Shown: positions 5,962-31,347, counted from the first letter of the stretch. The stretch: 32,000 nt of DNA from Erysipelotrichaceae bacterium (GCA_030604855.1 JAUVVC010000011.1:19331-51330); one strand, 5' to 3'. Notes: a model not told the origin generated them from the letters alone. Made by a program: numbers and translations.

Positions 5962-5973
5962 CGTTCTGTCCCC

Positions 5974-14643: not shown

Positions 14644-14647
14644 AAAC

Positions 14648-14678: not shown

Positions 14679-14686
14679 GAATTCAT

Positions 14687-15961: not shown

Positions 15962-15962
15962 G

Positions 15963-17054
15963 CTAGAAAATCGCTTTAGTCGTTTCCTTATCAAAGAAGT
16001 GAAGTTTGGACACATCCATCGCCAACTTAATGGTGTCATGCGCCTTCACATCAACACGGGAAGCGACTTTCGCCAACATCTTTTGACCCCCGAATTGACC
16101 ATGAAGAATGAATTCATGACCCAAGAGTTCAGAAACTTCGATATTGAAATCAAACGGTGTATCCGGGAACGTTTCCGCAACGATGCCTTCGTAATGAATA
16201 TCTTCTGGACGAATGCCCAACACCAATTCTTTACCATCGTAGTTCTTCAATTGATCATGGAACATTTTAGGAACCATGAAACTTTGGCCATCCACTTCAA
16301 AACGACCTTTTACATATTTTCCATTGATAAAATTCATCGCAGGGGCTCCAACGAAGTTCGCTACGAACATGTTGGCAGGTGTGTTATAGACTTGTTTCGG
16401 TGTACCGATTTGTTGGATATAGCCATCTTTCATGACGACAATACGCGTAGCCATGGTCATGGCTTCCGTTTGGTCATGGGTGACATAGACGGTTGTCGCA
16501 TTGAGACGTTCATGAAGTTTGATGATTTCAGAGCGCATTTGAACACGAAGCTTCGCATCCAAGTTACTCAAAGGTTCATCCATCAAGAAGACTTGCGCAT
16601 TACGAACGATTGCACGTCCCAAGGCCACACGTTGACGTTGACCACCGGATAGCGCTTTTGGTTTACGATCCAAGTATTGCTCGATTTCAAGGATCTTCGC
16701 ACTTTCGTGAACGCGACGATCGATTTCATCTTTAGGCAGTTTCTTTAAACGTAGACCAAAAGCCATGTTTTCATAGACAGACATGTGTGGATACAATGCA
16801 TAGGATTGGAACACCATCGCGATGTCACGATCCTTAGGTGCTTTATCATTGGCCAATTGTTCATTGATCCAAAGTTCACCGGAACTGATGTCTTCCAAAC
16901 CTGCGATCATACGCAATGTCGTGGATTTCCCACAACCGGAAGGTCCGACCAAGACGATGAATTCTTTATCTGAGATTTCCAAGTTGAAATCAAAGACCGC
17001 TTGGACGTTGTTGTCATAAATCTTATTAATGTTTTTTAGTTGTAATGTTGCCAT
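15963..17054 (-). CDS. msmX: Sugar ABC-transporter ATP-binding protein, MsmX/MalK type, 363 aa
   Basis: Walker [10 protein letters not shown], signature [14 protein letters not shown], Walker [13 protein letters not shown], and a C-terminal MalK-like regulatory domain. The start at 17054 ([11 protein letters not shown]) has a GAGG RBS. Confidence 0.92.
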
Positions 17055-17073
17055 ATTAACCTCGCTTGATTTG

Positions 17074-17082
17074 AGTATACCA
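17074..17082 (-). promoter_or_regulatory. Candidate extended -10 promoter for msmX
   Basis: TGgTATACT on the minus strand, about 20 nt upstream of the msmX ATG and immediately downstream of the hairpin at 17091-17128. The -35 is weak (ATTCAA). Confidence 0.4.
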
Positions 17083-17090
17083 CTGAATAA

Positions 17091-17128
17091 AAAAGATTGA
17101 ATGTGCACTGTGCACAAATCAATCTTTT
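17091..17128 (-). terminator. Long hairpin / intrinsic terminator after the PucR-like gene
   Basis: Outer 10-bp stem AAAAGATTGA (17091-17100) / TCAATCTTTT (17119-17128). Inner 7-1-7 perfect palindrome TGTGCAC-T-GTGCACA (17102-17116). On the minus strand the 3' arm runs into TTTTTTATT. The hairpin includes the stop codon of the upstream gene. Confidence 0.6.
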
Positions 17129-17682
17129 AGACGTTCATTCATCACGAAATAGAGTTGTAAGAGTCGACTGAGTTGGATGTCCCGCACATCGATCTTGGTC
17201 TCTTCATGGAATTTATCCAAACGATAGTTGAATGTATTCCGGTGAAGATAGAGATACTCTGCTGCTAAGACCGCATTGTTTGAACAGCTTAGATACATGG
17301 AAACCGTATCAATCAAATCATTGTGTAGTAGCCTTAATTTGTTTCTTAGTGCCTCTAACAATCTGAAGTCTTTCTGTTCGACACTCAACCACAAGCAGTC
17401 TGCCAATTCCATCAACTTTCCACTCGCCGTATGTTCCGCAATCTCAATGGCCAAACGCATGATCGCATCATCTTCAAAGCCTACAACCCCAACCAATTGC
17501 GTCCCAAAGTCATCTTGAAGCTGATGAAACAAAAGCTTAAGTTGCACACATTCACGTTGGCTTAGCGTCAGTCGGAAACCCTGACCATTCAAAGCTTCAT
17601 GTACATAGCCTGAGCTTTCACAAAAGTGTTCGAAGGCTCTTTGATCCGCATGGGCTACATTCACATAGACAAGCGTTTGCAT
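17119..17682 (-). CDS. Small PucR/CdaR-type helix-turn-helix regulator, 187 aa
   Basis: C-terminal [29 protein letters not shown] matches the PucR C-terminal HTH signature (HxNTxxYRL). The ATG at 17682 directly abuts the malL stop (17683-17685). Confidence 0.7.
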
Positions 17683-19365
17683 CTATTCCTCGAACACGAT
17701 GGCTTCATAAGGTCTAAGTTCAGTGACGTTCAATTTTGTATCCAAGTAGTTCGATAGACATAAAGCTTTGGCTTGGTGCTCAAACTTAATCGTTGTTGGT
17801 CTGAAGTTCGCAATCACCGTGATTTTCTTTTGACTTGAAGTTCGTGTGTATGCATAGACATCTGGGTTCTTAGGATCCAATAAAGCAAAGTCCCCAAACA
17901 CCAAGGTCTCTAGATATTCTGGATTCTTTCTTAAATGAATCAATCTTCGATAATGATTGAGAATCGATTGTTCATCCTTTTCTTGCGCTTCCACATTCAG
18001 CCATGAACGATTGCGGTTAATCTTTTGAATGGGTTCAACCGTACTGAAACCTGCATAGACTTCATCAGTCCACTGCATGGGTGTCCGTGCGTTATCACGC
18101 GATGTTCTTCTTAAGTGTCTTAATACCAATTCCAATGGATATTTCTTTAACAATGCTGGGGCATTATTCTTAACCCAGACATCCTTGAAATCATCAATGC
18201 TTTCGTAATCCACATTGGTCATCCCAATTTCTTCACCATTGTAAATAAAAGGTGTTCCAGGGAGGGTCAAAAGAATGGTTCCCAACATCATTCCAGACAA
18301 ACGATGGTGGTGTTCAGGATCTCCATATTGTGAGATGACGCGTGGATGATCATGGTTCAACCAATAATGAGGCAACCATCCCTTATCCTTCATGCCATTG
18401 ATCCAATAGGCCATATTCTCCTTAAGTTGAACGACATCAACGATCATCTTATCGTCATCATTCAAGATATCCATTCCACCTTTTGACCAACAATGATCAA
18501 AATTGAAAACCATATTGAAAGCTTGCGCATCATAACCGGCATAGCGAACACCGGCTTCAATCTTCGCACCACCGCCCACTTCACCGACACTCATGCAATC
18601 ATAGTGACTCAAAACTTTTTCATTGAACTCATGAATATAGTCGAAGAGTTCTTCACGATTGGAGAATTTACCCCAATCTGGCGCAACCCCATGATCATTC
18701 AAAGGAAGTTCACTGTCTGTAAAACTTAGATCTCTTGCTAAATGTGCGATCGCATCCACACGGAAGCCATCCACACCTTGGTCCAGCCACCAACGCGCAA
18801 CCTTAAACATCTCTTCACGCAGTTCTGGATTGGCCCAATTCAAGTCCGGCATTTTGTTGGAGAAGATCTTCATATAGAATTCCTCGGTTTTCGCATCGTA
18901 GTTCCATGCGGAGCCTTCGAAGAAACTACCCCAATTGGTCGGCGGAAGAAGCTTACCCTCCACTTCTTTACCCTTTTGCCAAATGTAATAATCTCGTTTT
19001 GGATTATCCACACTGGAACGTGCTTCCATGAACCATGGATGTTCATCACTGGTGTGATTCAACACAAGATCCAAGATGATACGAATCCCCTTCGCATGGG
19101 CTTTTTCAATCAATTCCTTCGCATCGTCCAAAGACCCAAACATCGGATCCACATCATAGAAATCACTGACATCATAGCCATTGTCATCCATGGGTGAACG
19201 ATAAAAAGGTCCGATCCAGATCAGATCGATACCGAGTTCATTCAAGTAGTCTAGTTTAGTAATAATGCCTCTTAAATCACCGACACCATCTTGATTTGTG
19301 TCATAAAAAGTTCTTGGATAGATCTGATATCCAACTGCCTGCATCCACCACTTCTTTTCTATCAT
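17683..19365 (-). CDS. malL: Oligo-1,6-glucosidase / alpha-glucosidase (GH13_31-like), 560 aa
   Basis: WWMQAVGYQIYPRTFYDTNQDGVGDLRGI, DLVLNHTSDEHPWF, GVDGFRVDAI, VGEV and WLNHDHPR motifs. GAGGA RBS. Confidence 0.9.
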   Translation of the reverse strand: MIEKKWWMQAVGYQIYPRTFYDTNQDGVGDLRGIITKLDYLNELGIDLIWIGPFYRSPMDDNGYDVSDFYDVDPMFGSLDDAKELIEKAHAKGIRIILDLVLNHTSDEHPWFMEARSSVDNPKRDYYIWQKGKEVEGKLLPPTNWGSFFEGSAWNYDAKTEEFYMKIFSNKMPDLNWANPELREEMFKVARWWLDQGVDGFRVDAIAHLARDLSFTDSELPLNDHGVAPDWGKFSNREELFDYIHEFNEKVLSHYDCMSVGEVGGGAKIEAGVRYAGYDAQAFNMVFNFDHCWSKGGMDILNDDDKMIVDVVQLKENMAYWINGMKDKGWLPHYWLNHDHPRVISQYGDPEHHHRLSGMMLGTILLTLPGTPFIYNGEEIGMTNVDYESIDDFKDVWVKNNAPALLKKYPLELVLRHLRRTSRDNARTPMQWTDEVYAGFSTVEPIQKINRNRSWLNVEAQEKDEQSILNHYRRLIHLRKNPEYLETLVFGDFALLDPKNPDVYAYTRTSSQKKITVIANFRPTTIKFEHQAKALCLSNYLDTKLNVTELRPYEAIVFEE

Positions 19366-19425: not shown

Positions 19426-19439
19426 TGAAATCGATTACA
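19426..19439. promoter_or_regulatory. cre / LacI-family operator upstream of malL
   Basis: TGAAATCGATTACA (minus strand: TGTAATCGATTTCA). With flanking bases it fits WTGNAANCGNWNNCW perfectly on both strands. It overlaps the stop codon of the EAL-HDOD gene. Confidence 0.6.
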
Positions 19440-20640
19440 ATTCCATTTGTTTGATCCAACGTAAAGCTTCGATATAAAGACCATTAAAGCTTTCCAAATC
19501 AATCTTCCCAAGCGGGAAATCAAATGTTTCTGGATTGATGTCCATGGCTTCATAACGCTTCACAAAATCCAGGACAAGTCTGAGATCATTCTCTTCCCCC
19601 AACAATGCAGCTTTGACAGCGTCAACCAAAGGCATTCCCATAAGGACTTCTTCCATTGGTTTAGAAAGCAAAACATCAATGGATGAAAACATACCTGTTA
19701 ACAGGTAATCAAGGCTTTGTTCTTTAGCCCCACAATACTGCGCCAAATTTTCCATCAGATGCGCACGCACCAAGGATTGTTTGATGAGCTCATGGTTCTC
19801 GACTTGTTGTAAGTCCTTTAATAAGAGCACATTGAACCAACGTCTCAACTCAAGGATGCCGATGCGAACCAAGGCTTGGCGAACAGAGCGGATTGAATAA
19901 CGTGCTCCATAAGAGATGGTGTTCGAAAGTCGGATGACTTTATAGGATAATCCCACATCCAATTCCACAGCTTGTGCGATTCGATTATAATCGGGATCCA
20001 GCGTACGTAATTGATGAATGATGTTCAGAATACTTGTATTCAAGACTCCAATATCGTTCTGTTTATAGATTACCGGTTTACTAAAGAAGAAACCTTGAAA
20101 GTAATCATAACCCATCTGAAGAGCCATATTGAACTCCTCACGCGTTTCAAGACGTTCCGCTAAGAACCGTATCTTATGCTTATGTTTCTTAATCAAGTTC
20201 CGTTGTGTTTCTAGAGATACATTGGGAAATTCGATCTTGATGATATCAACAAGTTCTAGTAAAGGCTCAAAGGATGGATTTAAAACGAAATCATCGAGAG
20301 CCAGAATGTAACCCTTCTCTTTCAAACTTTTACAGGCTTGAATCAAATCTTGATCAACGATGCTGTTCTCTAGGATTTCGATGACCAATTGTTCTTTTGG
20401 CAAGATTTCAGGAACCAAATCACGAACCATGGTATCGGTGAAATTGATGAAGCCTACTTTACCTTCTGTTAGATCATCAATCTGCATCGCAAAAAAGGCA
20501 TTGTAGATAAGATCCCGTGTTGCTTGGTTTCCATCAACGCCTTCATAAAAGTTATTCATGCTTCTTCGATACAAGAGCTCATACCCAAACACATTGCTGT
20601 GTCGATCAAAGATGGGTTGTCTGCCTACATAGACTTCCAT
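19435..20640 (-). CDS. EAL + HDOD domain protein (putative c-di-GMP phosphodiesterase), 401 aa
   Basis: EAL-domain residues: QPIFD...FGYELLYR, FINFT, VIEILE, ALDDF, IIKIE, LAERLET, YFQGFFFSKP. The C-terminal half carries HDOD-type LSYKVIRLSNTISYG...SVRQALVRIGILELRRW. GGGGGAA RBS, 27 nt after fliS. Confidence 0.85.
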   Translation of the reverse strand: MEVYVGRQPIFDRHSNVFGYELLYRRSMNNFYEGVDGNQATRDLIYNAFFAMQIDDLTEGKVGFINFTDTMVRDLVPEILPKEQLVIEILENSIVDQDLIQACKSLKEKGYILALDDFVLNPSFEPLLELVDIIKIEFPNVSLETQRNLIKKHKHKIRFLAERLETREEFNMALQMGYDYFQGFFFSKPVIYKQNDIGVLNTSILNIIHQLRTLDPDYNRIAQAVELDVGLSYKVIRLSNTISYGARYSIRSVRQALVRIGILELRRWFNVLLLKDLQQVENHELIKQSLVRAHLMENLAQYCGAKEQSLDYLLTGMFSSIDVLLSKPMEEVLMGMPLVDAVKAALLGEENDLRLVLDFVKRYEAMDINPETFDFPLGKIDLESFNGLYIEALRWIKQMEL

Positions 20641-20667
20641 TACACATTCCCCCGTAATAACCCTAAA

Positions 20668-21039
20668 CTAGCGAGTCCGGCTCATGCGATCGGCTTGATT
20701 GAAGACATCGCGGAGTTGGATGATCAAAGGTAAGATTTCTTCCAGTATCTTCTTATCTTTTTTAAGATTTGCTAAGATGAGTTGATCTTGGAAAAAGGTA
20801 TAGTATGGCGCAATTGATTGACTGACCGGTATTTCCATATTCAAGGTCTGATGTAGATACGCGATGATGTCTTGTGCTTTGATCAAGGCTTGATGTGAAC
20901 CTGCAATGGATTGCTCATCGATGTGGATGATGGCAAAATTGATTTGCTTGATTAAGCCTTCGAAAAGGGCGTTGATCATTTCACCCGCTGTCATTGTTTG
21001 AATGGCTTGGGCTTGGTAACTTGCATACGGATTGCTCAT
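20668..21039 (-). CDS. fliS: Flagellar export chaperone FliS, 123 aa
   Basis: MSNPYASYQAQAIQTMTAGEMI... is a typical FliS N-terminus with a four-helix pattern. The start at 21039 lies 2 nt after the fliD stop; the track extension overlaps fliD. Confidence 0.9.
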   Translation of the reverse strand: MSNPYASYQAQAIQTMTAGEMINALFEGLIKQINFAIIHIDEQSIAGSHQALIKAQDIIAYLHQTLNMEIPVSQSIAPYYTFFQDQLILANLKKDKKILEEILPLIIQLRDVFNQADRMSRTR

Positions 21040-21041
21040 AT

Positions 21042-23396
21042 CTATTGTCCTAATTGTTGGCTCAACCAACTGCTCTGTGAATTCATTTGACTGATGGCTT
21101 TTTCTAAACTCGTGAATTGTTTCCAATAACGCTCACGTTGTGTTTCATATAAGGCTTGAAGACGTTTCACCGTCGCATCGATGCTGGTAATGCGATCGTT
21201 AAGATTGTTTTTAGTTGCAGAGACCGTATTGGCTAAGCCCGCTAAAGAGACCAATCGACCTGGGTTACTGAAGGTGGATCGAACATAGCCATCAAGACGT
21301 TTGTTAAAACGTTCAATCAAGCCATCTTCAGAGGTCATCAAGTGTTGAACCTCGTCTGTACGCGTGTTTAAGACATTTCTCAACTTCGTCTCATCGATGG
21401 TGAGTTTCCCACGATCGGCGTAGTTTGAACTCGTGATACCCAGATCCAATAGGCTTAACTTCGATCCAGCAACGGGCGTCGAGAGCGCAGTTCTCAATTC
21501 ACTGATCAAACTGCTTAGAACCGTATCGTTGCGAACCAAGCCTTCTTTGGCTTTGATTTCCCATTGTTCGACTTCTTTTTCACTCATCGCTTCTTTTTGT
21601 TTATCCGTCAAAGGTGGATAATCACGATACTCCGCTTTGGCTTGAACCAATGCGTTTACTTTATCAATGATCGCATTGTAGGCACTCACAAACTTCTGAA
21701 GTGAATCCACTACCGCATCCACATTGTTTTCTGAATGGATCGTGGTTTGATTGTTCGTAGTCGAGCTGAGTTGAATCGCATAACCATTGAGGTTGAAGTT
21801 GTTGGTATTGCGTTCATAGACAGTCCCATCGATACTAAAGCGTGCGTTCTTCCCGTCTTCAACGATGCTCGTGTTTGTGTTCGCATTGAAGCTAATACTT
21901 TCAGAACCAAATAGCGCATTCATTGTATTCACATCCCCAGTAATAACGAGAGATACATCACTGCTAAAATTTAGTGTTCCAGCATCAATGGATATGTTTA
22001 ATCCTTGAAGTGAGAGTTGATCACTCAAATCTTGAAATGTAGTCAAGGTGGATAAATCGATATTGCTTCCATTGATCGTGATACTTCCTGTTAAGCCAGC
22101 ATCTACTAATTTACTGTCCAAGTGAATGGCTGTGGATTGTGTGGTAAAGCCCATCAAGGCGTTCAAACCTTCTGTGCTTGTGAAGGATACAGCTCGATCG
22201 GTTTCAAAAACATATTGAAGTCCGTCATGTGAGACCTTGATTGAATCCACACCAAATTTATCAGTGAGTTGTTGGTTCAACGTACTTAGTGCGGAGGCTT
22301 GATCATAGGTCCCTTCCGCAAGCGTGATGACTTCTTCTTTACCATTGATCATCAACTTGAAATCACCACCCGTAAAGCCATCTAATGAACTTCCAACTGA
22401 AGTTAAACGATTCAGGTGAAGTGATGTGTTGCCGAAGGAACTTAAGTTATCTTTCCCAAACAAAGATCCCATCAGATTGCCCACTACATCTTCGAAGTTG
22501 AGTGCGACACCTGAGCCTAAAATCTTACTGGTCAGATGAAAACGATCATCCAGGTTGGAATAACGTAATTGAACACCGGCTTCACTTTGGTTGATGCGTG
22601 CGATGACTTCATTCATCGTCGCATTCGCGTCATAGCTGAAATCAATACCATTGATTTTAAATGAAAAAGTATTTCCGATAAGGTGTTTAGAAAGATTCAA
22701 ATCGGACAATTTCTTTGATAGATCGAGCGTATTGGATACACTTTGACTCAAACCAAGCATGGCTAGTGCATCACTTGTGCCACTGATTTTCAACTCACGT
22801 TGATTGAGGGTAGTAATAGAGCCATCGCTTGCGACTACAATACCTGAACCAAATGTTTGATTCAGATCAATTTGGAGATTGGATAGGACTTCTGCCTCAC
22901 TTGCACCACGTAGAGCAATCGATTTAGTGATGCCATCAAGATTGAAATCCACTTTAAGCGTCTCTAATACTTTGCTTAAATCGACATTCACTTGAATATC
23001 TTTACTTAAACTTTCACCAGAACGAACGACTTTACCTGTGGCTAATTGTGAAATCGATTCGATGGTCAAAGGTGGATTGTTTGGGATCAAGGACGAAGCT
23101 TTCAATGCCGTTCCACTGACATGAACGGTTTGATTAACGTAGAGACTGGATGATCTTAGGTTGGAACTCGGGTTTAAGGTATTTAAGAAATTGCGTTGCA
23201 TCGTCAAGAGCTCGCTCGTCACATCACGGTAGATATTCTGTTTCCAGAGAATCTGTTGGCGGATGGCTTTTTGCTTGTCAATCTTGTTTTGCATCGCAGC
23301 CATCATGTTATCAATGACACTTTCACTGTCGATACCTGAAGCTAAGCCAAGTGTTCCGGATCTTCCATAACTGTTTGTGTTGTTTATGCTGGCCAT
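21042..23396 (-). CDS. fliD: Flagellar filament cap protein FliD (HAP2), 784 aa
   Basis: N-terminal GLASGIDSESVIDNMMAAMQNKIDKQK and C-terminal LETQRERYWKQFTSLEKAISQMNSQSSWLSQQL heptad regions typical of FliD. Long Ser/Thr/Asn-rich central part. AAAGGAG RBS. Confidence 0.9.
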   Translation of the reverse strand: MASINNTNSYGRSGTLGLASGIDSESVIDNMMAAMQNKIDKQKAIRQQILWKQNIYRDVTSELLTMQRNFLNTLNPSSNLRSSSLYVNQTVHVSGTALKASSLIPNNPPLTIESISQLATGKVVRSGESLSKDIQVNVDLSKVLETLKVDFNLDGITKSIALRGASEAEVLSNLQIDLNQTFGSGIVVASDGSITTLNQRELKISGTSDALAMLGLSQSVSNTLDLSKKLSDLNLSKHLIGNTFSFKINGIDFSYDANATMNEVIARINQSEAGVQLRYSNLDDRFHLTSKILGSGVALNFEDVVGNLMGSLFGKDNLSSFGNTSLHLNRLTSVGSSLDGFTGGDFKLMINGKEEVITLAEGTYDQASALSTLNQQLTDKFGVDSIKVSHDGLQYVFETDRAVSFTSTEGLNALMGFTTQSTAIHLDSKLVDAGLTGSITINGSNIDLSTLTTFQDLSDQLSLQGLNISIDAGTLNFSSDVSLVITGDVNTMNALFGSESISFNANTNTSIVEDGKNARFSIDGTVYERNTNNFNLNGYAIQLSSTTNNQTTIHSENNVDAVVDSLQKFVSAYNAIIDKVNALVQAKAEYRDYPPLTDKQKEAMSEKEVEQWEIKAKEGLVRNDTVLSSLISELRTALSTPVAGSKLSLLDLGITSSNYADRGKLTIDETKLRNVLNTRTDEVQHLMTSEDGLIERFNKRLDGYVRSTFSNPGRLVSLAGLANTVSATKNNLNDRITSIDATVKRLQALYETQRERYWKQFTSLEKAISQMNSQSSWLSQQLGQ

Positions 23397-23408
23397 GGTG
23401 CTCCTTTC

Positions 23409-23741
23409 TCAACCCTTGCGTTCAATATCAATATTTTCGCTAGGCATGAAGTAATTAGAAATCTGCTTTAAACGTTTGCTGGTCTCAAGGGCTTCTTGAG
23501 CGGCTAAACGCCATTGTTCCATCTGTTGAAGAATCAATTCATCGATGACTTGAATGCGTTCGATGAGGTGTTTAAGGTCATCATCCAATTCACAATCAAG
23601 CTCATCGGTCCTTTGCTTTATTTGTTCGCGTTCATTAAGAATGACAAGTAATTCTTCTGGTTCAACGTTCAAAGCACGTAAACTCAAATGTTCATACTGT
23701 TCAAACAAAGAACGCTTAAGCTCAAGCTTACTTTGACTCAT
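23409..23741 (-). CDS. Acidic all-helical 110-aa protein, possible FliT/FlgN-like export chaperone
   Basis: Same-strand ORF that fills the csrA-fliD gap. Coiled-coil-like sequence (NEREQIKQRTDELD..., IERIQVIDELILQQMEQW) loosely reminiscent of Bacillus FliT. The ATG is embedded in the last csrA codons and has no SD. Confidence 0.35.
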   Translation of the reverse strand: MSQSKLELKRSLFEQYEHLSLRALNVEPEELLVILNEREQIKQRTDELDCELDDDLKHLIERIQVIDELILQQMEQWRLAAQEALETSKRLKQISNYFMPSENIDIERKG

Positions 23742-23970
23742 TATTCTTGCGTTGTCTTAGTAGCGCTTTAAGTGCGATTGGATCGGCTTGAATCTGAGCA
23801 CTGCGATTCTCATCTTTGACATTCTCCAATAATTCTTTACGTAGAATCTTCACATCATTGGGTGCGACGATTGCGATACGGACGTTATCTTTGCCAATTT
23901 CTTGGATGATGATTTCAATGCCATCCCCAATTAGGATGGATTCTTTTTCTTTACGTGATAGAACCAACAT
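23728..23970 (-). CDS. csrA: Carbon storage regulator / translational repressor CsrA, 80 aa
   Basis: MLVLSRKEKESILIGDGIEIII...VRIAIVAP..VKILRKEL is the canonical CsrA core. It lies 1 nt after the fliW stop. Confidence 0.95.
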   Translation of the reverse strand: MLVLSRKEKESILIGDGIEIIIQEIGKDNVRIAIVAPNDVKILRKELLENVKDENRSAQIQADPIALKALLRQRKNNESK

Positions 23971-23971
23971 A

Positions 23972-24391
23972 CTAAGCTAACTTCGCTTTCAAAGGAAGAT
24001 CTTGGTCTAAGATACTTTGCATGCCCAAGTTATGCTCAGGACTAAATAACAAAGGACTCTTAAGATTGACGGTGGAATCAGTGAACTGTTCACCTAAGCT
24101 TACGATGCATAAAACATCGATGTCCTTGGTATCTTGAACTTTCAACAATTCTGTTTCTGTGGCTTTAAGTTGAAAGGACACTTCAGGAAAAAGTGCTGTT
24201 GGATTCGCCACCATGAAACAGACTTCAGGTTGATCTATGCCCTGTAACCACATCAAGTCGGACCCAAGATCTTCATCCGCTAACAAGGTATATCGATGGC
24301 AATCTTCGAAGCCATAAATGGGTTGAATGAATTCAATGATGGTTTCGGCTTGAATCTCAAGTGTTCCGAAGTATTTGGTTTGGATGTTCAT
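23972..24391 (-). CDS. fliW: Flagellar assembly factor FliW (CsrA antagonist), 139 aa
   Basis: MNIQTKYFGTLEIQAETIIEFIQPIYGFEDCHRYTLL... is typical of FliW, and the gene sits immediately upstream of csrA. The start at 24391 has an AGAGG RBS; the track extension overlaps the upstream gene. Confidence 0.9.
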   Translation of the reverse strand: MNIQTKYFGTLEIQAETIIEFIQPIYGFEDCHRYTLLADEDLGSDLMWLQGIDQPEVCFMVANPTALFPEVSFQLKATETELLKVQDTKDIDVLCIVSLGEQFTDSTVNLKSPLLFSPEHNLGMQSILDQDLPLKAKLA

Positions 24392-24398
24392 AAGACCT

Positions 24399-24836
24399 CT
24401 ATTTTTTAAGTTCAGGATTTGAACTGGCAGGAACGTAAATCGGTTCCCCTTGATAATCAAAACGTATTTCAGGATATTGTTGGACCTCAAATTCGAGTTC
24501 CGATGGATGATAGGTCATAATACGCTCTTTCATGACCTGCTTAGGTTCTAAACGCAACTGTGAACTTTGTGCATCCATGTAAGGCACGACATCGAGTTCA
24601 TTGGATTCCATGCGTTCATTCAAGTGGGATTGAATGTTTTGTTCAACAGGTTTATGCGTCACATTCTGTTGTCCATACACTGGAATTTCTTGGCTTGGTT
24701 TCAGTTTCTGTACCGGAGCACTCTGACGAATACGATTCGCTTTGAGCTTTGGGGCTTGCGTTTCAATATAGTGACCTTTTTCAACCTTGATCGCAATCTT
24801 GATTGGTTTAGTCGTAATTTTTAAGAGATTATTCAT
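24399..24836 (-). CDS. Hypothetical flagellar-locus protein in the YviE position, 145 aa
   Basis: Located between flgL and fliW, like B. subtilis yviE. Strong AAGGAGG RBS. The C-terminal EIRFDYQGEPIYVPASS resembles the YviE/DUF6470 end as I recall it. Confidence 0.45.
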   Translation of the reverse strand: MNNLLKITTKPIKIAIKVEKGHYIETQAPKLKANRIRQSAPVQKLKPSQEIPVYGQQNVTHKPVEQNIQSHLNERMESNELDVVPYMDAQSSQLRLEPKQVMKERIMTYHPSELEFEVQQYPEIRFDYQGEPIYVPASSNPELKK

Positions 24837-24845
24837 TTTTCCTCC

Positions 24846-25805
24846 TTAACGGATGAAATCAAAGATGGACATCGGTAATACTTTAGAGCCCAACTGCAAG
24901 CTTACTTGCCAGGTGAGTTCAAGGCTCTTGTTTTGAATGAGTTCGGACTCAATATCCACTGCTTCCAGTTTATTTTGCATTTCAGTAAGTTGGAGTTGAT
25001 CGATTTCCATACGATTCTTGGTGTTATCTAAGTAAGCGTTACGTGCTCCAAGATCGGTGAGTGAAACCAGGAGTCGATCGTGTGCTGAGCTTACCTTCTT
25101 ACTCAAGGATTCAAAACCACTAAGGTCATTATTTTTTAGACCTTTACTTAGTTCTTGAAAGACGCGAATGAGGTTGTTGGGTGTTCCGTTATCCATACCG
25201 TAACCTAGAATCTCTAATGGGGATGTGTCACTGCGTACGACACTGCTTTCCTTAACGACTCCACCATTGAATTGAAGTCCTAAACCAATATCAATGAATT
25301 GACCTTTGATCTCTGGTGGGACAAGGGAATCCACATTAAAGCTGTGAATCGAAACGGTCCCATCCCCAAGTACGATCGGAGTTTTTCCATCGGTGCCTGC
25401 GAAGACAGGACGATCCACACCTTGGACATTCATCAACTGAACGATGCTTTCACTGAGATAATCGAGTTCTTTGGCAAGAATTGTTCGTTCACTCGGTCCA
25501 TTGGTATCGCTCTTTGCATTAACCAACAAGCTCTGTGCGCGGGCAATGATTTCATTCATCTGCATCAAACTGGTTTCTTGACCATTAAGATCAAGTTGAA
25601 GCTTGTCGATATTGCGAAGGTATTGTTCGGAGCGTTGGAGTTTATCGCGAACGGTTAAAGCACGTTGTGCATCACTGACATTGTCACTGACACGATTGAG
25701 ACGACGCCCACTGCTCATGCGTTCATTGGAGGTCGCGAGTTGTTTCATATTGCGATGAAGATTATTCAGGTAAGCACGTTGGATATTTTTCTGTGTGATG
25801 CGCAT
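24846..25805 (-). CDS. flgL: Flagellar hook-filament junction protein FlgL (HAP3), 319 aa
   Basis: MRITQKNIQRAYLNNLHRNMKQLATSNERMSSGRRLNRVSDN is a flagellin-like N-terminus, and the C-terminus has heptads. The gene follows flgK by 1 nt. Confidence 0.9.
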   Translation of the reverse strand: MRITQKNIQRAYLNNLHRNMKQLATSNERMSSGRRLNRVSDNVSDAQRALTVRDKLQRSEQYLRNIDKLQLDLNGQETSLMQMNEIIARAQSLLVNAKSDTNGPSERTILAKELDYLSESIVQLMNVQGVDRPVFAGTDGKTPIVLGDGTVSIHSFNVDSLVPPEIKGQFIDIGLGLQFNGGVVKESSVVRSDTSPLEILGYGMDNGTPNNLIRVFQELSKGLKNNDLSGFESLSKKVSSAHDRLLVSLTDLGARNAYLDNTKNRMEIDQLQLTEMQNKLEAVDIESELIQNKSLELTWQVSLQLGSKVLPMSIFDFIR

Positions 25806-25806
25806 C

Positions 25807-27207
25807 TTAACGTCCTACCAATCCCATACGGTTTATGATGGTGTCCAATACTTCGTCCATGGCATTCATGACACGTGCACTGGCTTGAAAGGCTTTCTCA
25901 TAAATCAAGAGGTTGGCACCTTCTTCATCCAGTGAGACTGCACTGATGGAATCTCTTTGTTGAGCAAGATCATTCGCAATGCTGGTGCTGGTTTGGAGGC
26001 GTGAAGCGATAAAATTACGATCTTGTCCAAGTGCGATGACGAACTTGGAGACGAATTCACTCATGGAGCTCTGTTCTTCGTTGATGAGCATCTTGCCTTC
26101 TAACTTTTCAATTAAGGCAAGTATTGGACGATTGTCCAAGCTCCCATTTTCTTTCAGGATGTAAGAGGGTTGTTTGAGCCATGCTTCCTCAATGCTTAAG
26201 CTAGAAGCGGAACTACCACTGATCAATGCTTTTGCTTGATCATCTGTGTTCGTAAATGCTTGATTCATGACTGTCGCAAAGGAACTCGCAAGCTCATTTA
26301 ATTGTCCTTGGTAATAAGCAATCCCTTGTGCGAAAGGATTGTTGCCTTCGATACGCTCGATGCTCGCCTTCAAACTTCCTGCTCCCAAGGAAATGGCTTG
26401 TCCTGTGGATTGCCATTCCAATACAAGTGGATCAGTTGGTTTTAAGAGATTCAATTGGTCACGATAGTCCCCATCCAAAATCAATTGATCATGCATGTGG
26501 ATTTGGATCTGACCATCCGTTTGTGCAGTGACTTTGATATTACCAAAAGTTGCGAGGTGATCGACTAAGAGATTACGTTGGTCCATCAGTTCATTGACCG
26601 CATTCTGTTTGCCTTCTAAGAAGGCTTTGGAGATGCTGTCATTCAAGCCTTGGATTTTACTTAGAGTCGTATTCACGTCATTCACATCAACGGATAAATC
26701 GGAGATGCTCTGTGCTTTCAATCCATTCAATTCTTCTGCATATTGGTTGAACATCTGGATGACGCTCTTGGTTTTAGATAGAACAATATTCGCATTCACT
26801 GCTTGGTTCGGATTCATGCTGAAGTCTTGAAGGGATGAGACCAAATCTTGAAGACTTGGCTTGATGCCACCTTCAATTTCATTCAGTACACCTTCCAAAT
26901 CATCCAATATGGTGAGGGTTTGTTCATAATAACTCTGCTCAGCTAACTCACTGCGATAACGACCATCCAATTGTTGGTCACGGATTTGGGAGACATCGGA
27001 AACCAAAACACCTTGACCACTCATGCCTGCTTGGGTTGTGCGATAACGTGCATCGATGTTGCTCGATACACTCACGACATCAATGCGTTGACGTGTGTAG
27101 CCTTCGGTATTGGCATTGGTGATGTTTTGCCCTGTCACATCCAATCCTTTTTGGCTGACGGTCAAACCTTTACGTGCGGTTTCTAAACCTAAAAATGTGG
27201 AACGCAT
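25807..27207 (-). CDS. flgK: Flagellar hook-associated protein FlgK (HAP1), 466 aa
   Basis: MRSTFLGLETARKGLTVSQKGLDVTGQNITNANTEGYTRQR and the C-terminal VSLDEEGANLLIYEKAFQASARVMNAMDEVLDTIINRMG. Confidence 0.93.
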   Translation of the reverse strand: MRSTFLGLETARKGLTVSQKGLDVTGQNITNANTEGYTRQRIDVVSVSSNIDARYRTTQAGMSGQGVLVSDVSQIRDQQLDGRYRSELAEQSYYEQTLTILDDLEGVLNEIEGGIKPSLQDLVSSLQDFSMNPNQAVNANIVLSKTKSVIQMFNQYAEELNGLKAQSISDLSVDVNDVNTTLSKIQGLNDSISKAFLEGKQNAVNELMDQRNLLVDHLATFGNIKVTAQTDGQIQIHMHDQLILDGDYRDQLNLLKPTDPLVLEWQSTGQAISLGAGSLKASIERIEGNNPFAQGIAYYQGQLNELASSFATVMNQAFTNTDDQAKALISGSSASSLSIEEAWLKQPSYILKENGSLDNRPILALIEKLEGKMLINEEQSSMSEFVSKFVIALGQDRNFIASRLQTSTSIANDLAQQRDSISAVSLDEEGANLLIYEKAFQASARVMNAMDEVLDTIINRMGLVGR

Positions 27208-27208
27208 C

Positions 27209-27595
27209 TTAACGCACCTCCGCAGCTTGATAGATGCTGAGGTTCATATGAATGATTTCCATGCTCTTACGATTGTGGTACTTGATCTGACTGATGGCGT
27301 GTTGAAGACGTTCGTAGGTATGTTCTAAGACAACCTTTTGTTCAGTATCACAAAGTGCGATGACTTCACGTAGACTAAGTTCATTAAAGCCATGGGTCTG
27401 AAAGAAGTTCTGTCTTTCGACTTCTATGTTCTCAATCCGTTTCGCATTGCTTTGTTGCTCAAGAAGATTGGCTTGAATGGCTTGCACATCATTGGACATC
27501 AAAACACTCAGTTTCACTTTCTCTAGCTCAACCATTTCTTCAAAGAACGTCGTATAACGCTCCATGAAGTGTTCGATGTTCATCCAATCAGTCAT
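27209..27595 (-). CDS. flgN: FlgN-like flagellar export chaperone, 128 aa
   Basis: Helical protein in the flgM-flgN-flgK position. It shows a FlgN-type pattern (ELEKVKLSVLMSNDVQAIQANLLEQQ...). Its start overlaps the flgM stop by 8 nt. Confidence 0.6.
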   Translation of the reverse strand: MTDWMNIEHFMERYTTFFEEMVELEKVKLSVLMSNDVQAIQANLLEQQSNAKRIENIEVERQNFFQTHGFNELSLREVIALCDTEQKVVLEHTYERLQHAISQIKYHNRKSMEIIHMNLSIYQAAEVR

Positions 27596-27884
27596 TGTTT
27601 TTACCTTGGTAGGCTAGAATCGCTTCGGCTACTTTACGATGATCGACGGAATAGGTTCCATTTTGAATTTGTTGCTTAAGCTCCTGAACACGTTTGGAAG
27701 AGAATTCTTCTTTAAGTGTTTCCACCACCTTAGATTTAAGTTCAGTCACATCCTGTTTAGGTTTGGTTTCATGCAGTTCTATGGTATCCAATTTTAAAGA
27801 CTTATTTGTCTTCTCTACTTTGTTCACAGGCTTTGGGGCTTGTGTTTTTTGTATCTTCGCAATTGGGTTATTTTCGATTTTCAT
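27588..27884 (-). CDS. flgM: Anti-sigma-28 factor FlgM, 98 aa
   Basis: C-terminal RVQELKQQIQNGTYSVDHRKVAEAIL is the FlgM signature. The start at 27884 (MKIENNPI) has GGGAGGA 6 nt upstream; the track start at 27899 has no RBS. Confidence 0.8.
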   Translation of the reverse strand: MKIENNPIAKIQKTQAPKPVNKVEKTNKSLKLDTIELHETKPKQDVTELKSKVVETLKEEFSSKRVQELKQQIQNGTYSVDHRKVAEAILAYQGKNND

Positions 27885-27920
27885 AATGGATCCTCCCATG
27901 AAAAAAGTTCTTCAACGTGT

Positions 27921-27946
27921 TTATCGAACAACTTTTGAAAAACTTA
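27921..27946 (-). promoter_or_regulatory. Sigma-D/sigma-28-type promoter upstream of flgM
   Basis: The minus strand reads TAAGTTTT-N10-TTCGATAA, i.e. TAAG, 14 nt, TTCGATAA. Reference consensus is TAAAGTTT-N11-GCCGATAA (TAAA-N15-GCCGATAT in Bacillus). It lies 36 nt upstream of the flgM ATG. Confidence 0.55.
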
Positions 27947-27948
27947 AG

Positions 27949-28566
27949 TTAAATATCAATGATTTCCTTCTGACGCTTGAATAAGTACTGCACTATCGCA
28001 TTGGCTGTATTATCATCCACTTGATTGAAGCGTACCCCATAGCCATAATAACCATCTTGAGCAGCACGACAACGCACCACCACACCCATGATCATGAATT
28101 CTTTCCCATCAATGGTGAAGTTTAAACGCATCTTGGTGCGTACCGTTAGGATTGCCTTTGATAAAACCATAGCCCCATTCAAACTCAAGTCTTGTAAGAT
28201 GCAGGACATATTTCGGATGGGTCCACCACCTCGAGCTTCAATCCCAGCTGTCGCTTCGAGATTGACGTTCACGCGGAAGAAATTACGTTGTTCACCTTCT
28301 ACCAAAGTACGTGTATCGATGACACGAAAGAACTCCATGGTTGGTATGTATAAGCGTCCTTCAATCACCAAGGGTTCTAAGACATGGTGACTGATGATGA
28401 CTTTGACATTAAATTCATATCGAGTCAAACTGGATGAACCCAAATCATTCGAAATCTCTAGGAAGTCAGGTCCGATCTTAATGATTTTCCCCTTGGTCAA
28501 TAAATCGTTGCCTTGAGTCCTTAGCTCACAACTGGCAAAGCGATATCCTTCATCGATTAGTGCCAT
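27949..28566 (-). CDS. PilZ-domain c-di-GMP receptor, YcgR/MotI-like two-domain protein, 205 aa
   Basis: The c-di-GMP-binding motifs RxxxR (QRNFFRV) and DxSxxG (DLSLNGA) are both present and are preceded by a roughly 90-aa N-terminal domain. GGGGGA RBS. Confidence 0.8.
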   Translation of the reverse strand: MALIDEGYRFASCELRTQGNDLLTKGKIIKIGPDFLEISNDLGSSSLTRYEFNVKVIISHHVLEPLVIEGRLYIPTMEFFRVIDTRTLVEGEQRNFFRVNVNLEATAGIEARGGGPIRNMSCILQDLSLNGAMVLSKAILTVRTKMRLNFTIDGKEFMIMGVVVRCRAAQDGYYGYGVRFNQVDDNTANAIVQYLFKRQKEIIDI

Positions 28567-28574
28567 GCGTCCCC

Positions 28575-28946
28575 CTAGTGTCTTGGATTTTGTTTAACTT
28601 TAATGACAGCGTTGACTAATGCAGAGATGACATCCGCATCATAACGACGAATCTCCAAAGCTTGATCAAGTTCATTACGCACAATGTATTTAGGCGGAAG
28701 ATTATTGACCGCCAAGGCTAAGACATCTTTAACACAATGATCACATTGACAACACTTGAACTTCTCCATAGCCTCTTCAATGCGTTCTTTCACCGCAAGT
28801 TCTGCGACATTGACCAACACCTTGGGTTGTAGGAAGGGTGTGGGTTGTGGAAGGGGTGTACTTTCTTCCACGATTTTGGTTTGGTTTGATGAAGGCATGA
28901 TTTTCTTATACATGGCTTCTTTATCAATTGAGCGATTATTGGACAT
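28575..28946 (-). CDS. ComFB-domain protein with an N-terminal low-complexity extension, 123 aa
   Basis: KFKCCQCDHCVKDVLALAVNNLPPKYI matches the ComFB Cys-cluster/LALxLNxLPPxY signature. The start at 28946 has a GGGGGA RBS and overlaps the parA-like stop by 11 nt. Confidence 0.75.
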   Translation of the reverse strand: MSNNRSIDKEAMYKKIMPSSNQTKIVEESTPLPQPTPFLQPKVLVNVAELAVKERIEEAMEKFKCCQCDHCVKDVLALAVNNLPPKYIVRNELDQALEIRRYDADVISALVNAVIKVKQNPRH

Positions 28947-29706
28947 GCGTTTCCCCCTGTAAAATCTCTTCAACTAAATTTAAGTAATCTTGTGCCACAT
29001 CCCCTTGTTTGATCAGATCAAAGAGGTCTTGTTGGCTGGATTGTGCTTCCGCAACTTTGATGCTGGAGCGGATGCTTGTATCGAACAACTTGAGTTTTAA
29101 ATCATTGAGGACGAGTTCTGCTGTCCCCTTGACTTCTCTATTCAAGTAAACACGATCGTTGTATTTATTGAGAATGACCCCTTCAATTGTACAGTTCGGA
29201 TTCGAGTATTTACGAACTTGTTGAACCGTTTCATGAAGTTGAGTGATGCCTTGTAGACTGAAGATATCCGCTACCATGGGAATCAAGATGCCATTGCAAG
29301 CACTCATGGCATTGATGGTTAGAATACCTAAACCCGGAGGGGTATCGATCAGGATGTAATCATAGTAGGGACGTATGTTTTGTAATGCATTGCGGAGTAG
29401 GAATTCACGACCACTTTGGGTGTATTCCATTTCGATTCCACTGAGCAAGATGTTCGCCGCAACGATATCGATGATCGCTGTGCGTTGAATGGCGTGTTGG
29501 AGCTTGACTTCACCTTTGAGCACTTCGTAAATGGTTGCACTTAAGACCGTTTCTGCGTTTGCACAAAAAGAGAGATTCCCTTGTGGATCCATATCGATGA
29601 TCAACACTTTATAACCTTGATGTTTAAGCGCTGATGCCAGATTGATGGTGGTGGTCGTTTTACCGACTCCCCCTTTTTGATTGGTAATGGTAAGTATCCG
29701 TGTCAT
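28936..29706 (-). CDS. ParA/Soj-family P-loop ATPase (orphan), 256 aa
   Basis: Deviant Walker A ITNQKGGVGKTTTTINLA, IIDMDPQGN and YILIDTPPGLG motifs. The start at 29706 has a GAGGAG RBS. No parB-like gene is adjacent. Confidence 0.9.
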   Translation of the reverse strand: MTRILTITNQKGGVGKTTTTINLASALKHQGYKVLIIDMDPQGNLSFCANAETVLSATIYEVLKGEVKLQHAIQRTAIIDIVAANILLSGIEMEYTQSGREFLLRNALQNIRPYYDYILIDTPPGLGILTINAMSACNGILIPMVADIFSLQGITQLHETVQQVRKYSNPNCTIEGVILNKYNDRVYLNREVKGTAELVLNDLKLKLFDTSIRSSIKVAEAQSSQQDLFDLIKQGDVAQDYLNLVEEILQGETHVQ

Positions 29707-29765: not shown

Positions 29766-30047
29766 TTAACCGTTCTTTTCACGTATCTTTTCAGCCCCAA
29801 TCAAGAGCTGTGTATAGATTTCCGCTATAACTTGATACAACTCAACAGGAATGCTTTCACCTAGCTTTAACATCGTCAATAAACCAGCACTGTGTTCATC
29901 TTCATAAACAGGAATTCCAAGCTTCTCACCGAGATGAATGATCTGCTCAGCAATCGGTCCATAACCGGATGCGATGACAATCGGAGCGTTCTGTTTGGCT
30001 TGGTCGTATTTGAGCGCGACCGCTTTCTTGAGCTTAGGCATAGGCAT
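29766..30047 (-). CDS. Free-standing FlhB C-terminal (FlhB_CC / EscU-YscU-type) domain protein, about 93 aa
   Basis: KKAVALKYDQAKQNAPIVIASGYGPIAEQIIHLGEKLGIPVYEDEHSAGLL...IPVELYQVIAEIY is colinear with the post-NPTH part of FlhB. It has no TM region. The start at 30047 or 30041 overlaps the upstream stop. Confidence 0.8.
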   Translation of the reverse strand: MPMPKLKKAVALKYDQAKQNAPIVIASGYGPIAEQIIHLGEKLGIPVYEDEHSAGLLTMLKLGESIPVELYQVIAEIYTQLLIGAEKIREKNG

Positions 30048-31308
30048 CGATTCCGGTCTGAAGTGCTTGTAGGTGTGGGAAGACATCCAGAAGTGTTCGT
30101 GCGTGTATCCAATCCGAAACACTTAAGCGTTCCACACCATAGCCTAATTTTCGAATGGCTTGGCTCATCGCATCGCGTTGGGCTTCAAACACAATTCGAT
30201 ACTCAGAAGGAACATTCAATTGAATGGAAAGGCGCTTATCCAAGGCATGAACCTCGCATTCGACCATTCCCAACTCATTTAAATCCACAAGCATAAGTAC
30301 CTGAGTTGCCTTACTCTCATTCCCTGTATCAATCCAGACTTCCGCATGCACGACTTGTTCATGAAAGCGAAGGGGTAGATAGATATGATGAAGTGGAATG
30401 TAGTTGGAAGGTGCGTTTAAGATGAAGCGCAGGATATCCTGTAGACTTTGCTTATCCAAGTCAGTACTGTTCTGTTCCGCAAGCTTCAAGAGTTCCACAA
30501 ACTTGCCCATGGTTTTTGAGCCTGAGCGTAGATTCTCTGCAATTGCGTTCTGATAAATGGCTTTTTGCTTGAGGTTACTGTCCTCAGTATCTGAGCGCAA
30601 TAAGCGTGAGAGATGAACTTCCAACAAACGGAAGATCGTTTCAGTATTCGAATCCATCAAACCGTTTTGTTCTATTAGACCTAATAACTTCGTAAGTTCC
30701 TCCTGTAAAGCATGCGCATCCATCTGTGAGCTCTTCTCTAAAACCTCTTTAATATTTCCGTGGAAATAACTTTGATTGTATTTATGCATCAAGGCCTCAA
30801 GATGAGATTGAATGCTTTTACGTGCGCGTGCATGTGTGATCGGCAACAACATACTCTGTATCGCATCAATGACCACGTGTTTCTGACCTTCACTTAGCAT
30901 CTTCCTCAGCTCATCAAACACCTGCCCATAAAAGGTCACATTATTCTGGGCTTGGGTCTTCATCTCTTGAACCAATTGCGATGGATCCAGTGCAAATGAA
31001 GCCAAGAGCTTACCCAACGCTTCTTGAAGTCCTGCATTATCAATAGAGAGCATTTGAACGACGGATTCGATATTTTGATAAGCAAAGATATATTGAGTAC
31101 TCAACTCACTTTGTTTAAGGAGTTCACTTAGTACCGCATTCTCTTGATTGAGTAAACTCAGGTTTTGGCCATGTTCCTCTTTGCGTACATTCAAGGTGTT
31201 GATCTTAGATACATCTTGAATCTGAAAAGGCACCTCAGACTGAGGTTCATGACGTGTGATACTGGGCATCTTTACAGGTGCTTGACTTATTTTAAGTTGA
31301 TCAGCCAT
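30034..31308 (-). CDS. FliK-like (hook-length-control C-terminal domain) protein, 424 aa
   Basis: The C-terminal roughly 90 aa (VLMLVDLNELGMVECEVHALDKRLSIQLNVPSEYRIVFEAQRDAMSQAIRKLGYGVERLSV) follow the FliK Flg_hook pattern. The N-terminal roughly 300 aa are helical and Gln/Leu-rich. No SD precedes the ATG. Confidence 0.55.
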   Translation of the reverse strand: MADQLKISQAPVKMPSITRHEPQSEVPFQIQDVSKINTLNVRKEEHGQNLSLLNQENAVLSELLKQSELSTQYIFAYQNIESVVQMLSIDNAGLQEALGKLLASFALDPSQLVQEMKTQAQNNVTFYGQVFDELRKMLSEGQKHVVIDAIQSMLLPITHARARKSIQSHLEALMHKYNQSYFHGNIKEVLEKSSQMDAHALQEELTKLLGLIEQNGLMDSNTETIFRLLEVHLSRLLRSDTEDSNLKQKAIYQNAIAENLRSGSKTMGKFVELLKLAEQNSTDLDKQSLQDILRFILNAPSNYIPLHHIYLPLRFHEQVVHAEVWIDTGNESKATQVLMLVDLNELGMVECEVHALDKRLSIQLNVPSEYRIVFEAQRDAMSQAIRKLGYGVERLSVSDWIHARTLLDVFPHLQALQTGIDAYA

Positions 31309-31321: not shown

Positions 31322-31347
31322 ATATCGATTGCTTTCGATGAATCTTA
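31322..31347 (-). promoter_or_regulatory. Second sigma-D/sigma-28-type promoter candidate, upstream of the FliK-like gene
   Basis: The minus strand reads TAAG-N14-ATCGATAT, with the same architecture and spacing as the flgM promoter. The -10 element ends only 13 nt before the ATG. Confidence 0.4.

Follow-up and report, generated by a model that had tools for sequence, protein, structure and literature searches.

A ParA-like ATPase gene paired with the gene for a ComFB-family putative cyclic-dinucleotide receptor in a late-flagellar locus of an uncultured Erysipelotrichaceae bacterium

Gene content of the locus

The 32 kb of DNA analysed here, called the window below, come from an uncultured Erysipelotrichaceae bacterium described as gut-type. 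Between positions 19435 and 29706 the minus strand encodes a ParA/Soj-like ATPase, a ComFB-domain protein, a two-domain PilZ protein, the late-flagellar genes from flgM to fliS and, last, an EAL-HDOD protein (Table 1). A first-pass annotation of the sequence had placed three proteins linked to cyclic di-GMP (c-di-GMP), together with a ParA, within a late-flagellar locus that lacked a GGDEF cyclase. All four signalling proteins are found there; their domain calls were confirmed with Pfam and NCBIfam, with Pfam scores far over the curated cut-offs, and no GGDEF gene is present among the open reading frames (ORFs) of the whole window.

That annotation treated the ParA as a bystander. Judged by gene order across related loci, it is the tightest-linked partner of ComFB, and the parA-comFB pair is best described as the conserved core of the locus. 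The evidence for this comes first below; the PilZ and EAL-HDOD proteins, the arrangement of the whole locus and the possible meaning of the assembly follow.

The parA-comFB pair

A metagenome scan with the ComFB alignment, in which ParA adjacency was not a selection criterion, brought in 65 further loci; with those found earlier there are 75 ComFB loci, forming 54 groups at 90% identity. All the examples are from uncultured organisms, in metagenome bins of Erysipelotrichaceae and other anaerobic Bacillota. In 51/51 groups with room to judge, the gene just upstream of comFB, on the same strand, encodes a ParA-like protein. The spacing is mostly −38 to +8 nucleotides (nt), usually an overlap, and the two genes stay together even where ComFB identity has fallen to 26-30% and all other neighbours differ. 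The ComFB-linked ATPases belong to a single orthologous group, with 43-99% identity to the window ParA (median 55%); other ParA/MinD-like genes of these loci share only 25-30% identity with the ComFB-linked ones.

At the window locus the parA stop and the comFB ATG overlap by 11 nt, the pilZ ATG stands 8 nt beyond the comFB stop, and GGGGGA-type ribosome-binding sites mark both junctions; parA and comFB are predicted to be translationally coupled. The annotated comFB start (28946) is used here; the ORF lister places it at 28973.

The pair often keeps company with motility genes: 26 of the 39 non-redundant loci of at least 5 kb have flagellar late genes or cheC, cheD, cheW or fapA in the surroundings. 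One set of loci runs comFB, then CheW, then flgM. Another has cheC-cheD beside the pair and, after it, a protein of about 1,200 amino acids (aa) with a GLUG motif. Proteins of this last kind (1,140-1,340 aa, with GLUG as the sole Pfam match) directly follow parA-comFB in about 10 loci (L055, L057, L059, L061, L065, L066, L069-L071; for example L057:7568-11140), most of which have cheC-cheD upstream on the opposite strand. The surroundings in L025, L026, L036 and L037 concern cell shape and division, not motility: a DUF436 gene follows the pair there, and in the vicinity are mreC and the gene of another ATPase, which is MinD-like and shares 25-30% identity with the ParA linked to ComFB.

No literature was found that links ComFB with ParA, MinD or FlhG, and the paper that describes the ComFB family (PMC12448109) does not mention them. 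A ParA-ComFB pair with a dedicated N-terminal peptide appears to be undescribed.

The ComFB protein and its N-terminal peptide

ComFB/CdgR proteins have been published as a widespread family of cyclic-dinucleotide (c-di-NMP) receptors (PMC12448109, PMC12265714). The first-pass annotation was right to name the family as cyclic-dinucleotide receptors affecting motility. In B. subtilis, ComFB binds c-di-GMP and, without need of MotI, inhibits the function of flagella by way of a target not yet identified (PMC12265714).

The ComFB domain of the window protein scores 58.3 bits, the Pfam (PF10719) cut-off being 25, and the protein matches B. subtilis ComFB by sequence (PDB 4wai, E 1.4e-05). With its AlphaFold2 (AF2) model as query, Foldseek placed 4wai at the top (template-modelling (TM) score 0.74, root-mean-square deviation 2.1 Å), followed by the c-di-GMP-bound CdgR 8hja. 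The domain is modelled with a per-residue confidence (pLDDT) of 81-93, the N-terminal 40 residues with values <50. Three parts make up the protein: the N-terminal peptide MSNNRSIDKEAMYKKIMPS, a linker predicted to be disordered, and the ComFB domain, in which lies a CCxCxxC motif. Following the residue list and B. subtilis numbering of PMC12448109, the dimerization and ligand residues N4, E7, D33, A36, L37, N40, Y46 and V47 and the Cys triad are conserved: N46, E49, D74, N81 and Y87 of the window protein align to the dimerization residues N4, E7, D33, N40 and Y46, and C66/C68/C71 to the Bacillota zinc triad Cys25/27/30.

ParA-linked ComFBs all start with a basic peptide whose consensus is M-A-K-x-K-K-E-[IF]-D-K-E-x-M-Y-K-K-[IL]-M-P-[ST]; 51/54 ComFB groups have its strict form and the remaining 3 an FNLIMPS variant. 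The linker between peptide and domain varies in length and composition. An exhaustive HMMER search returned 455 ComFB clusters (50% identity) at E<=1e-10; in the best 150 of these 455, the strict motif occurs near residue 13 in 118 and variants of it in about 15 others. The peptide is missing from the ComFB of B. subtilis, which has no ParA gene next to it and starts directly at the domain. Another conserved basic N-terminus, 'MAKK(S/T)NKTEHVLKLI..', is found on the ComFB-domain proteins P0340, P0348, P0352, P0358 and P0361; it may represent a second class of partner-binding peptide.

Partners of ParA/MinD ATPases use, as a general rule, a conserved basic N-terminal peptide on a disordered tether (PMC11407121). 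ComFB is most likely the nucleotide-sensing partner or adaptor of the ParA-like ATPase, by analogy with such partners, because the two genes are coupled and ComFB carries a basic, conserved, disordered N-terminal peptide of this kind. The organization resembles that of ParA-ParB, McdA-McdB, ParC-ParP, PpfA-TlpT and MinD-MinE in two respects: the gene of a deviant Walker-A ATPase is followed by that of a small partner, and the partner has its basic conserved peptide on a disordered linker (PMC11407121). It differs in the folded domain of the partner, which here is a cyclic-dinucleotide receptor domain (ComFB) and not a DNA-binding, carboxysome-binding or CheW-like one.

The ParA-like ATPase

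The window ATPase is Soj-like and without a membrane helix. It carries the deviant Walker A sequence NQKGGVGKT, and its closest solved relatives are ParA 8ray (2.3e-44), Soj 6iub, 8jmj and 1wcv. Its true start, read from the sequence, is an ATG preceded by GAGGAG; the protein begins MTRILTITNQKGG, so that only 3 residues precede the first strand. The C-termini of these ParAs are acidic and hydrophobic ('..DY..F..ELL..G').

Four more familiar identities were considered and set aside. FlhG (YlxH/FleN) would bring an N-terminal DQAxxLR activator helix and a C-terminal amphipathic membrane helix, neither of which is present, and the loci have no flhF. MinD is disfavoured by the absence of a MinD-type C-terminal membrane helix and by closest matches that are ParA/Soj. 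As to a chromosomal Soj or a plasmid partition protein, no ParB is seen; what follows the ATPase gene, in the window as in 51/51 groups, is comFB. The array-positioning ParAs (ParC, PpfA) belong to che operons and have CheW-like domain proteins as partners; here the partner is ComFB, and no che gene adjoins in the window.

The FlhF/FlhG switch offers a partial parallel: there too a ParA/MinD-superfamily ATPase is encoded amid flagellar genes, but the window ATPase matches ParA/Soj best, not FlhG/MinD, and the loci have no FlhF partner. In L001:35-2814, L012:1-2362 and L014:2017-4928, flhA is directly followed by the gene of a sigma-28-like sigma factor; flhF and flhG are absent, in those loci, from the position after flhA that they hold in the B. 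subtilis fla/che operon. Because this usual slot is empty there, it is conceivable that the ParA-like ATPase serves as a substitute spatial regulator for FlhF/FlhG.

The PilZ protein

The PilZ domain scores 60.8 bits in Pfam (cut-off 22.5). R94-N-F-F-R98 (RxxxR) and D126-L-S-L-N-G131 (DxSxxG) are invariant in 15 homologues, among which the N-domain is conserved even more strongly than the PilZ domain itself. A fold search was needed, because a PDB sequence search gave no match at E<=1. The AF2 model (pLDDT 78) has two beta-barrel domains, and Foldseek matched it at full length to MotI/DgrA 5vx6 best (1.3e-07), then to MrkH, PlzA 7mie, YcgR 5y6f and PP4397; the TM score is only about 0.43, since the domain orientation differs. 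The first-pass assignment to the YcgR/MotI type agrees with these matches and with the invariant motifs. With the YcgR, FlgZ and PlzA brakes the protein shares two beta-barrels, RxxxR in the inter-domain linker, DxSxxG in the C-terminal barrel and a gene within a flagellar locus; unlike them, it has no sequence-level PilZN/YcgR_N match.

Although the modelled architecture is MotI/YcgR-like, the family forms a narrow lineage of its own: a word-seeded search recovered 31 proteins among 5.8 billion, and a scan of GTDB genomes with the PilZ alignment gave 8 species loci, all from metagenome-assembled genomes of uncultured Erysipelotrichaceae or other Bacillota.

The gene also has steady neighbours of another kind. 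A FliK-like gene and a gene for a protein consisting of only the FlhB C-terminal domain (window 29766-31308) always lie 5' of parA-comFB-pilZ in the Erysipelotrichaceae loci, and in distant loci where ParA-ComFB is elsewhere or absent (L011, L014, L068) they still adjoin pilZ, which points to a connection between its product and this export-switch pair.

The EAL-HDOD protein

The EAL-HDOD gene starts 27 nt past the fliS stop and has its own ribosome-binding site. The protein and its homologues keep the EAL motifs QPIF, YELLYR, FINF, EILE, DDF, KIE, AERLET and FQGFFFSKP; the catalytic set E21, R25, N66, E88/E91, D116/D117, K135, E162/E165 and Q182 is present, and most of its residues are conserved in homologues of 49-74% identity. 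The Pfam EAL profile aligns only to the C-terminal half; the N-terminal motifs were read from an alignment. For HDOD the score is 49.4 bits (cut-off 22.9). The protein belongs to a very large family, of >3,670 matches at E<=1e-10. With every EAL catalytic motif kept, the protein is predicted to be an active c-di-GMP phosphodiesterase of PdeH/YuxH architecture, the degrader that the first-pass annotation had proposed.

Its position is another matter. A place directly after fliS is confined to the window species, as in L012 and L013, which come from other samples, and to L081 (74% identity). Its orthologues in sister lineages (52-56% identity; L080, L082, L083, L084) share another conserved neighbourhood, with NUDIX, acetyltransferase, isochorismatase and AraC genes, flanked by genes for PAS-GGDEF, seven-transmembrane (7TM)-GGDEF and GGDEF-EAL proteins; in the sole complete chromosome this neighbourhood is about 700 kb from the flagellar locus. 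Because the orthologues sit in that other neighbourhood, the fliS-linked phosphodiesterase is to be seen as a derived, lineage-specific rewiring and not as an element of a conserved circuit. Relatives encode several GGDEF proteins, and since GGDEF genes flank the sister orthologues, the clade does have diguanylate cyclases.

In L082 and L083 the EAL-HDOD gene is a tandem duplicate. An EAL-HDOD gene lies near parA-comFB in four lineages, at differing positions. The one convergent with comFB at L053:8536-9801 has lost catalytic residues (N to T, ExxE lost, DD to ND, the EGVE-type Glu lost), and, by its sequence, the product would more probably serve as a receptor or scaffold than act as a phosphodiesterase.

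Conservation of the arrangement

The order FliK-like, FlhB-C, ParA, ComFB, PilZ, flgM...fliS is found in all related loci of sufficient length (L001/L007, L002, L005, L008, L009, L010, L012, L013, L015-L023, L081), down to 42-47% PilZ identity. Independent assemblies, some from this species and some from relatives, show it again, so it is not a chance product of the window contig.

Conservation beyond the strain, a point on which the first-pass annotation had staked its proposal, thus extends from the FliK-like gene to fliS, while the EAL-HDOD gene after fliS belongs to a narrow clade. The self-contained circuit for sensing and clearing c-di-GMP that it had proposed is not conserved as a unit, the EAL-HDOD orthologues being elsewhere, beside GGDEF genes. 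Nor are the B. subtilis equivalents all scattered, as it had supposed: the comF operon lies directly upstream of flgM (PMC12265714), and for that reason ComFB upstream of flgM is to be regarded as an old arrangement.

Transcription units and neighbouring genes

The features of the locus are collected in Table 1. The flagellin gene is truncated by the window end; a hairpin followed by a T-run forms a terminator at its 3' side, and a sigma-28-type motif comes next. This terminator and the sigma-28 motifs were read directly from the sequence. The promoter-like motif TAAG-N15-TCGATA has only two minus-strand matches in the window, both intergenic, and three on the plus strand; mononucleotide shuffles give a background of 2.5 matches per window, counting both strands. 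The first-pass annotation's flgM promoter is real as a motif: the flgM-proximal copy is kept 5' of flgM in 8 related loci (L002, L007, L008, L010, L012, L016, L019, L021). The motif also stands 5' of the FliK-like genes in L012, L021 and L022, and of flagellin genes in L002, L019 and L021. No terminator was detected in the pilZ-flgM gap. A generic scan for sigma-70 promoters and terminators gave counts at shuffle level and was uninformative.

From the promoter-like motifs and gene spacing we infer two units: unit A with fliK-like, flhB-C-like, parA-like, comFB and pilZ, and unit B with flgM, flgN, flgK, flgL, fliW, csrA, fliD, fliS and EAL-HDOD. The sigma-28-like motifs would tie both gene blocks to the flagellar hierarchy, into which the locus had been proposed to be wired.

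Table 1. Features of the late-flagellar locus (positions in the 32-kb window)
Feature	Coordinates	Strand	Evidence or remarks
Sigma-28 (SigD/FliA)-type promoter-like motif TAAG-N15-TCGATA	31323..31347	-	5' of FliK-like gene, just past flagellin terminator
FliK-like hook-length control protein, 424 aa	30034..31308	-	Weak Flg_hook match under cut-off; position kept in all related loci
FlhB C-terminal domain-only protein, ~91 aa (gene call in L012, 91 aa)	29766..30041	-	Bac_export_2 1.6e-15; TIGR00789 FlhB-like 9.6e-24, under cut-off
Orphan ParA/Soj-type deviant Walker-A ATPase, 256 aa	28936..29706	-	AAA_31 4.9e-53, CbiA 6.8e-27
ComFB-family putative cyclic-dinucleotide receptor, 123 aa	28575..28946	-	Pfam ComFB 8.2e-16
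Two-domain PilZ protein, MotI/YcgR architecture, 205 aa	27949..28566	-	Pfam PilZ 1.7e-16
Sigma-28-type promoter-like motif TAAG-N15-TCGATA	27922..27946	-	In 49-nt pilZ-flgM gap
FlgM anti-sigma-28 factor	27588..27884	-	Pfam FlgM 1.6e-11; TIGR03824 over cut-off
Late-flagellar genes flgN, flgK, flgL, DUF6470-like orf145, fliW, csrA, orf110, fliD, fliS	20668..27595	-	
EAL-HDOD protein, 401 aa, PdeH/YuxH-like	19435..20640	-	Pfam EAL 8.5e-15, HDOD 5.2e-13

Two small conserved ORFs interrupt the late-flagellar genes, both without a Pfam match in the window. One, orf145 (24399-24836), lies between flgL and fliW, and its counterpart in L002 is a DUF6470 protein. The other, orf110 (23409-23741), lies between csrA and fliD, a slot that we take to be the flaG position of B. 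subtilis.

The remaining ORFs of the window are glycolysis, glycogen, amylase and transporter genes. Directly downstream, the flagellar cluster gives way to genes for amylase, alpha-glucosidase, a MalK-like ABC ATPase and a PucR-type regulator, and beyond them come glgC-glgD-glgA and pgk-tpi-eno (window 46-7125 and 12556-19365). Between the EAL-HDOD and alpha-glucosidase genes no terminator was detected. An Rfam scan of the window found no c-di-GMP riboswitch and no family at threshold.

A possible control layer and its alternatives

One way to understand the locus is as a late (sigma-28-class) flagellar cluster with a built-in layer of c-di-GMP motility control, made up of a MotI-like PilZ protein, the ParA-ComFB pair and a PdeH-like enzyme; this is the account we lean towards, with modest confidence. 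The mechanism that we infer, as regards ligand binding, the ParA-ComFB contact, the target or cargo and the direction of regulation alike, would run as follows. Cells in which sigma-28 is on would express both receptors and, in this lineage, the phosphodiesterase alongside the filament genes, and the PdeH-like EAL-HDOD protein would hold c-di-GMP low during motility. Diguanylate cyclases encoded elsewhere could raise it; the MotI-like PilZ protein would then bind c-di-GMP via RxxxR/DxSxxG and stall or disengage the motor, as MotI does on MotA. ComFB would act by a second route, through the ParA-like ATPase, most likely by altering how its own N-terminal peptide engages the ATPase; and the pair would control placement, number or activity of flagella or of chemosensory arrays.

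The natural comparison is with PdeH (YuxH), MotI (DgrA) and ComFB of B. subtilis, where PdeH is the sole phosphodiesterase and motility ceases, via DgrA/MotI, when it is lost (PMC5422440). The same three protein families are involved, comFB is upstream of flgM in both organisms (PMC12265714), the window PilZ fold is closest to MotI, and the EAL-HDOD architecture is that of PdeH. The differences lie in wiring. Here all three genes fall within units of predicted sigma-28 type, and comFA and comFC are missing; pilZ directly follows comFB and, in the window clade only, the phosphodiesterase gene directly follows fliS. Moreover, an N-terminal peptide and a linker extend the window ComFB, and its gene is predicted to be translationally coupled to that of a ParA ATPase, which B. 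subtilis comFB lacks.

Several points weigh against this account. That the window ComFB binds its ligand is plausible but uncertain: Asn82 (VNNLPPKY) sits at the position of the c-di-GMP-contacting Arg/Lys41, where L002, L010 and most other ParA-linked ComFBs have Lys (LNKLPPKY); for the guanine-stacking Tyr55 there is no aromatic residue at the aligned column, in a part of the alignment (past residue 47) that is unreliable for the window protein. The N-terminal motif was one of two patterns in the metagenome scan, so that the frequency of the peptide among those loci is in part a result of the search itself. The N-domain of the PilZ protein has no Pfam PilZN/YcgR_N match at E<=0.01, and promoters and operons are predicted on a motif basis only. 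No motility gene is nearby in 13 of the 39 loci of at least 5 kb. The EAL-HDOD position is lineage-specific (other genes follow fliS in L001/L007, L002, L008 and L010), and none of the genes seen so far in the window species encodes a GGDEF protein.

A second perspective supposes that ParA-ComFB positions chemoreceptor arrays, in the manner of ParC-ParP or PpfA-TlpT, and does not act on the flagellum, the place among late-flagellar genes reflecting co-regulation only. CheW directly follows parA-comFB in L042, L047, L048, L049 and L054, cheC-cheD are beside the pair in about 10 groups, methyl-accepting chemotaxis protein and FapA genes are among the neighbours, and L011 has a CheW gene in the slot before the PilZ gene. 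However, the neighbours in the window clade are FliK-like, FlhB-C-like, PilZ and flgM, with no adjacent che gene; ComFB has no CheW-like domain for array integration; and B. subtilis ComFB affects flagellar function (PMC12265714). We hold array positioning instead of flagellar control to be unlikely.

Clustering might also signify co-expression and nothing else: the three c-di-GMP proteins would act independently, as in B. subtilis, the ParA-ComFB adjacency would be a matter of shared operon history, and the peptide would bind some other thing, for example an export chaperone or the membrane. The varying position of EAL-HDOD and varying presence of PilZ among lineages fit this idea, as does the third of ParA-ComFB loci that have no motility neighbours. 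It accounts poorly for an adjacency without exception among the groups that could be judged, held to such low ComFB identity with frames overlapping or nearly abutting, and for the lack of the peptide in a ComFB that has no ParA beside it, and we hold it somewhat less probable than array positioning.

Least probable, and by our estimate decidedly improbable, is that the ComFB of this clade has lost c-di-GMP sensing and binds c-di-AMP or nothing, as a structural ParA adaptor that leaves PilZ the sole c-di-GMP receptor: the Asn for Arg/Lys41 is in its favour, some family members may have lost binding and Synechocystis ComFB binds c-di-AMP too (PMC12448109), but the other contact and dimer residues and the zinc-binding cysteines are conserved, and a PilZ protein and a c-di-GMP phosphodiesterase are co-encoded.

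The control-layer account can be carried further. ParA-ComFB might be a new and widespread two-gene ParA/MinD positioning system of anaerobic Bacillota, with a receptor for cyclic dinucleotides as its partner protein, in which c-di-GMP on ComFB would gate the engagement of the peptide with a nucleoid-bound ATPase, or its stimulation of that ATPase, and so set the number, placement or activity of flagella (or of chemosensory arrays) in lineages without FlhF/FlhG at the usual place. This extension is offered tentatively, as a possibility still on the doubtful side.

Implications

Three c-di-GMP proteins near flagellar genes would, taken alone, be a compact version of the known B. subtilis scheme. 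The window lineage has moved a PdeH-like phosphodiesterase gene from a GGDEF-rich neighbourhood into the fliD-fliS operon, by which a global signalling enzyme would be rewired into an organelle-specific regulon.

The wider interest is in the pair. ComFB was recognised as a third widespread family of c-di-GMP receptors only in 2023-2025, and the B. subtilis study names the target of its motility inhibition as an open question (PMC12265714). ParA-ComFB would join second-messenger signalling to the ParA/MinD positioning machinery, and a conserved ParA partner gene, with a dedicated N-terminal peptide on the receptor, provides a testable candidate partner for hundreds of ComFB clusters. If the positioning interpretation is true, the long-sought class of downstream targets of ComFB receptors would have been named.

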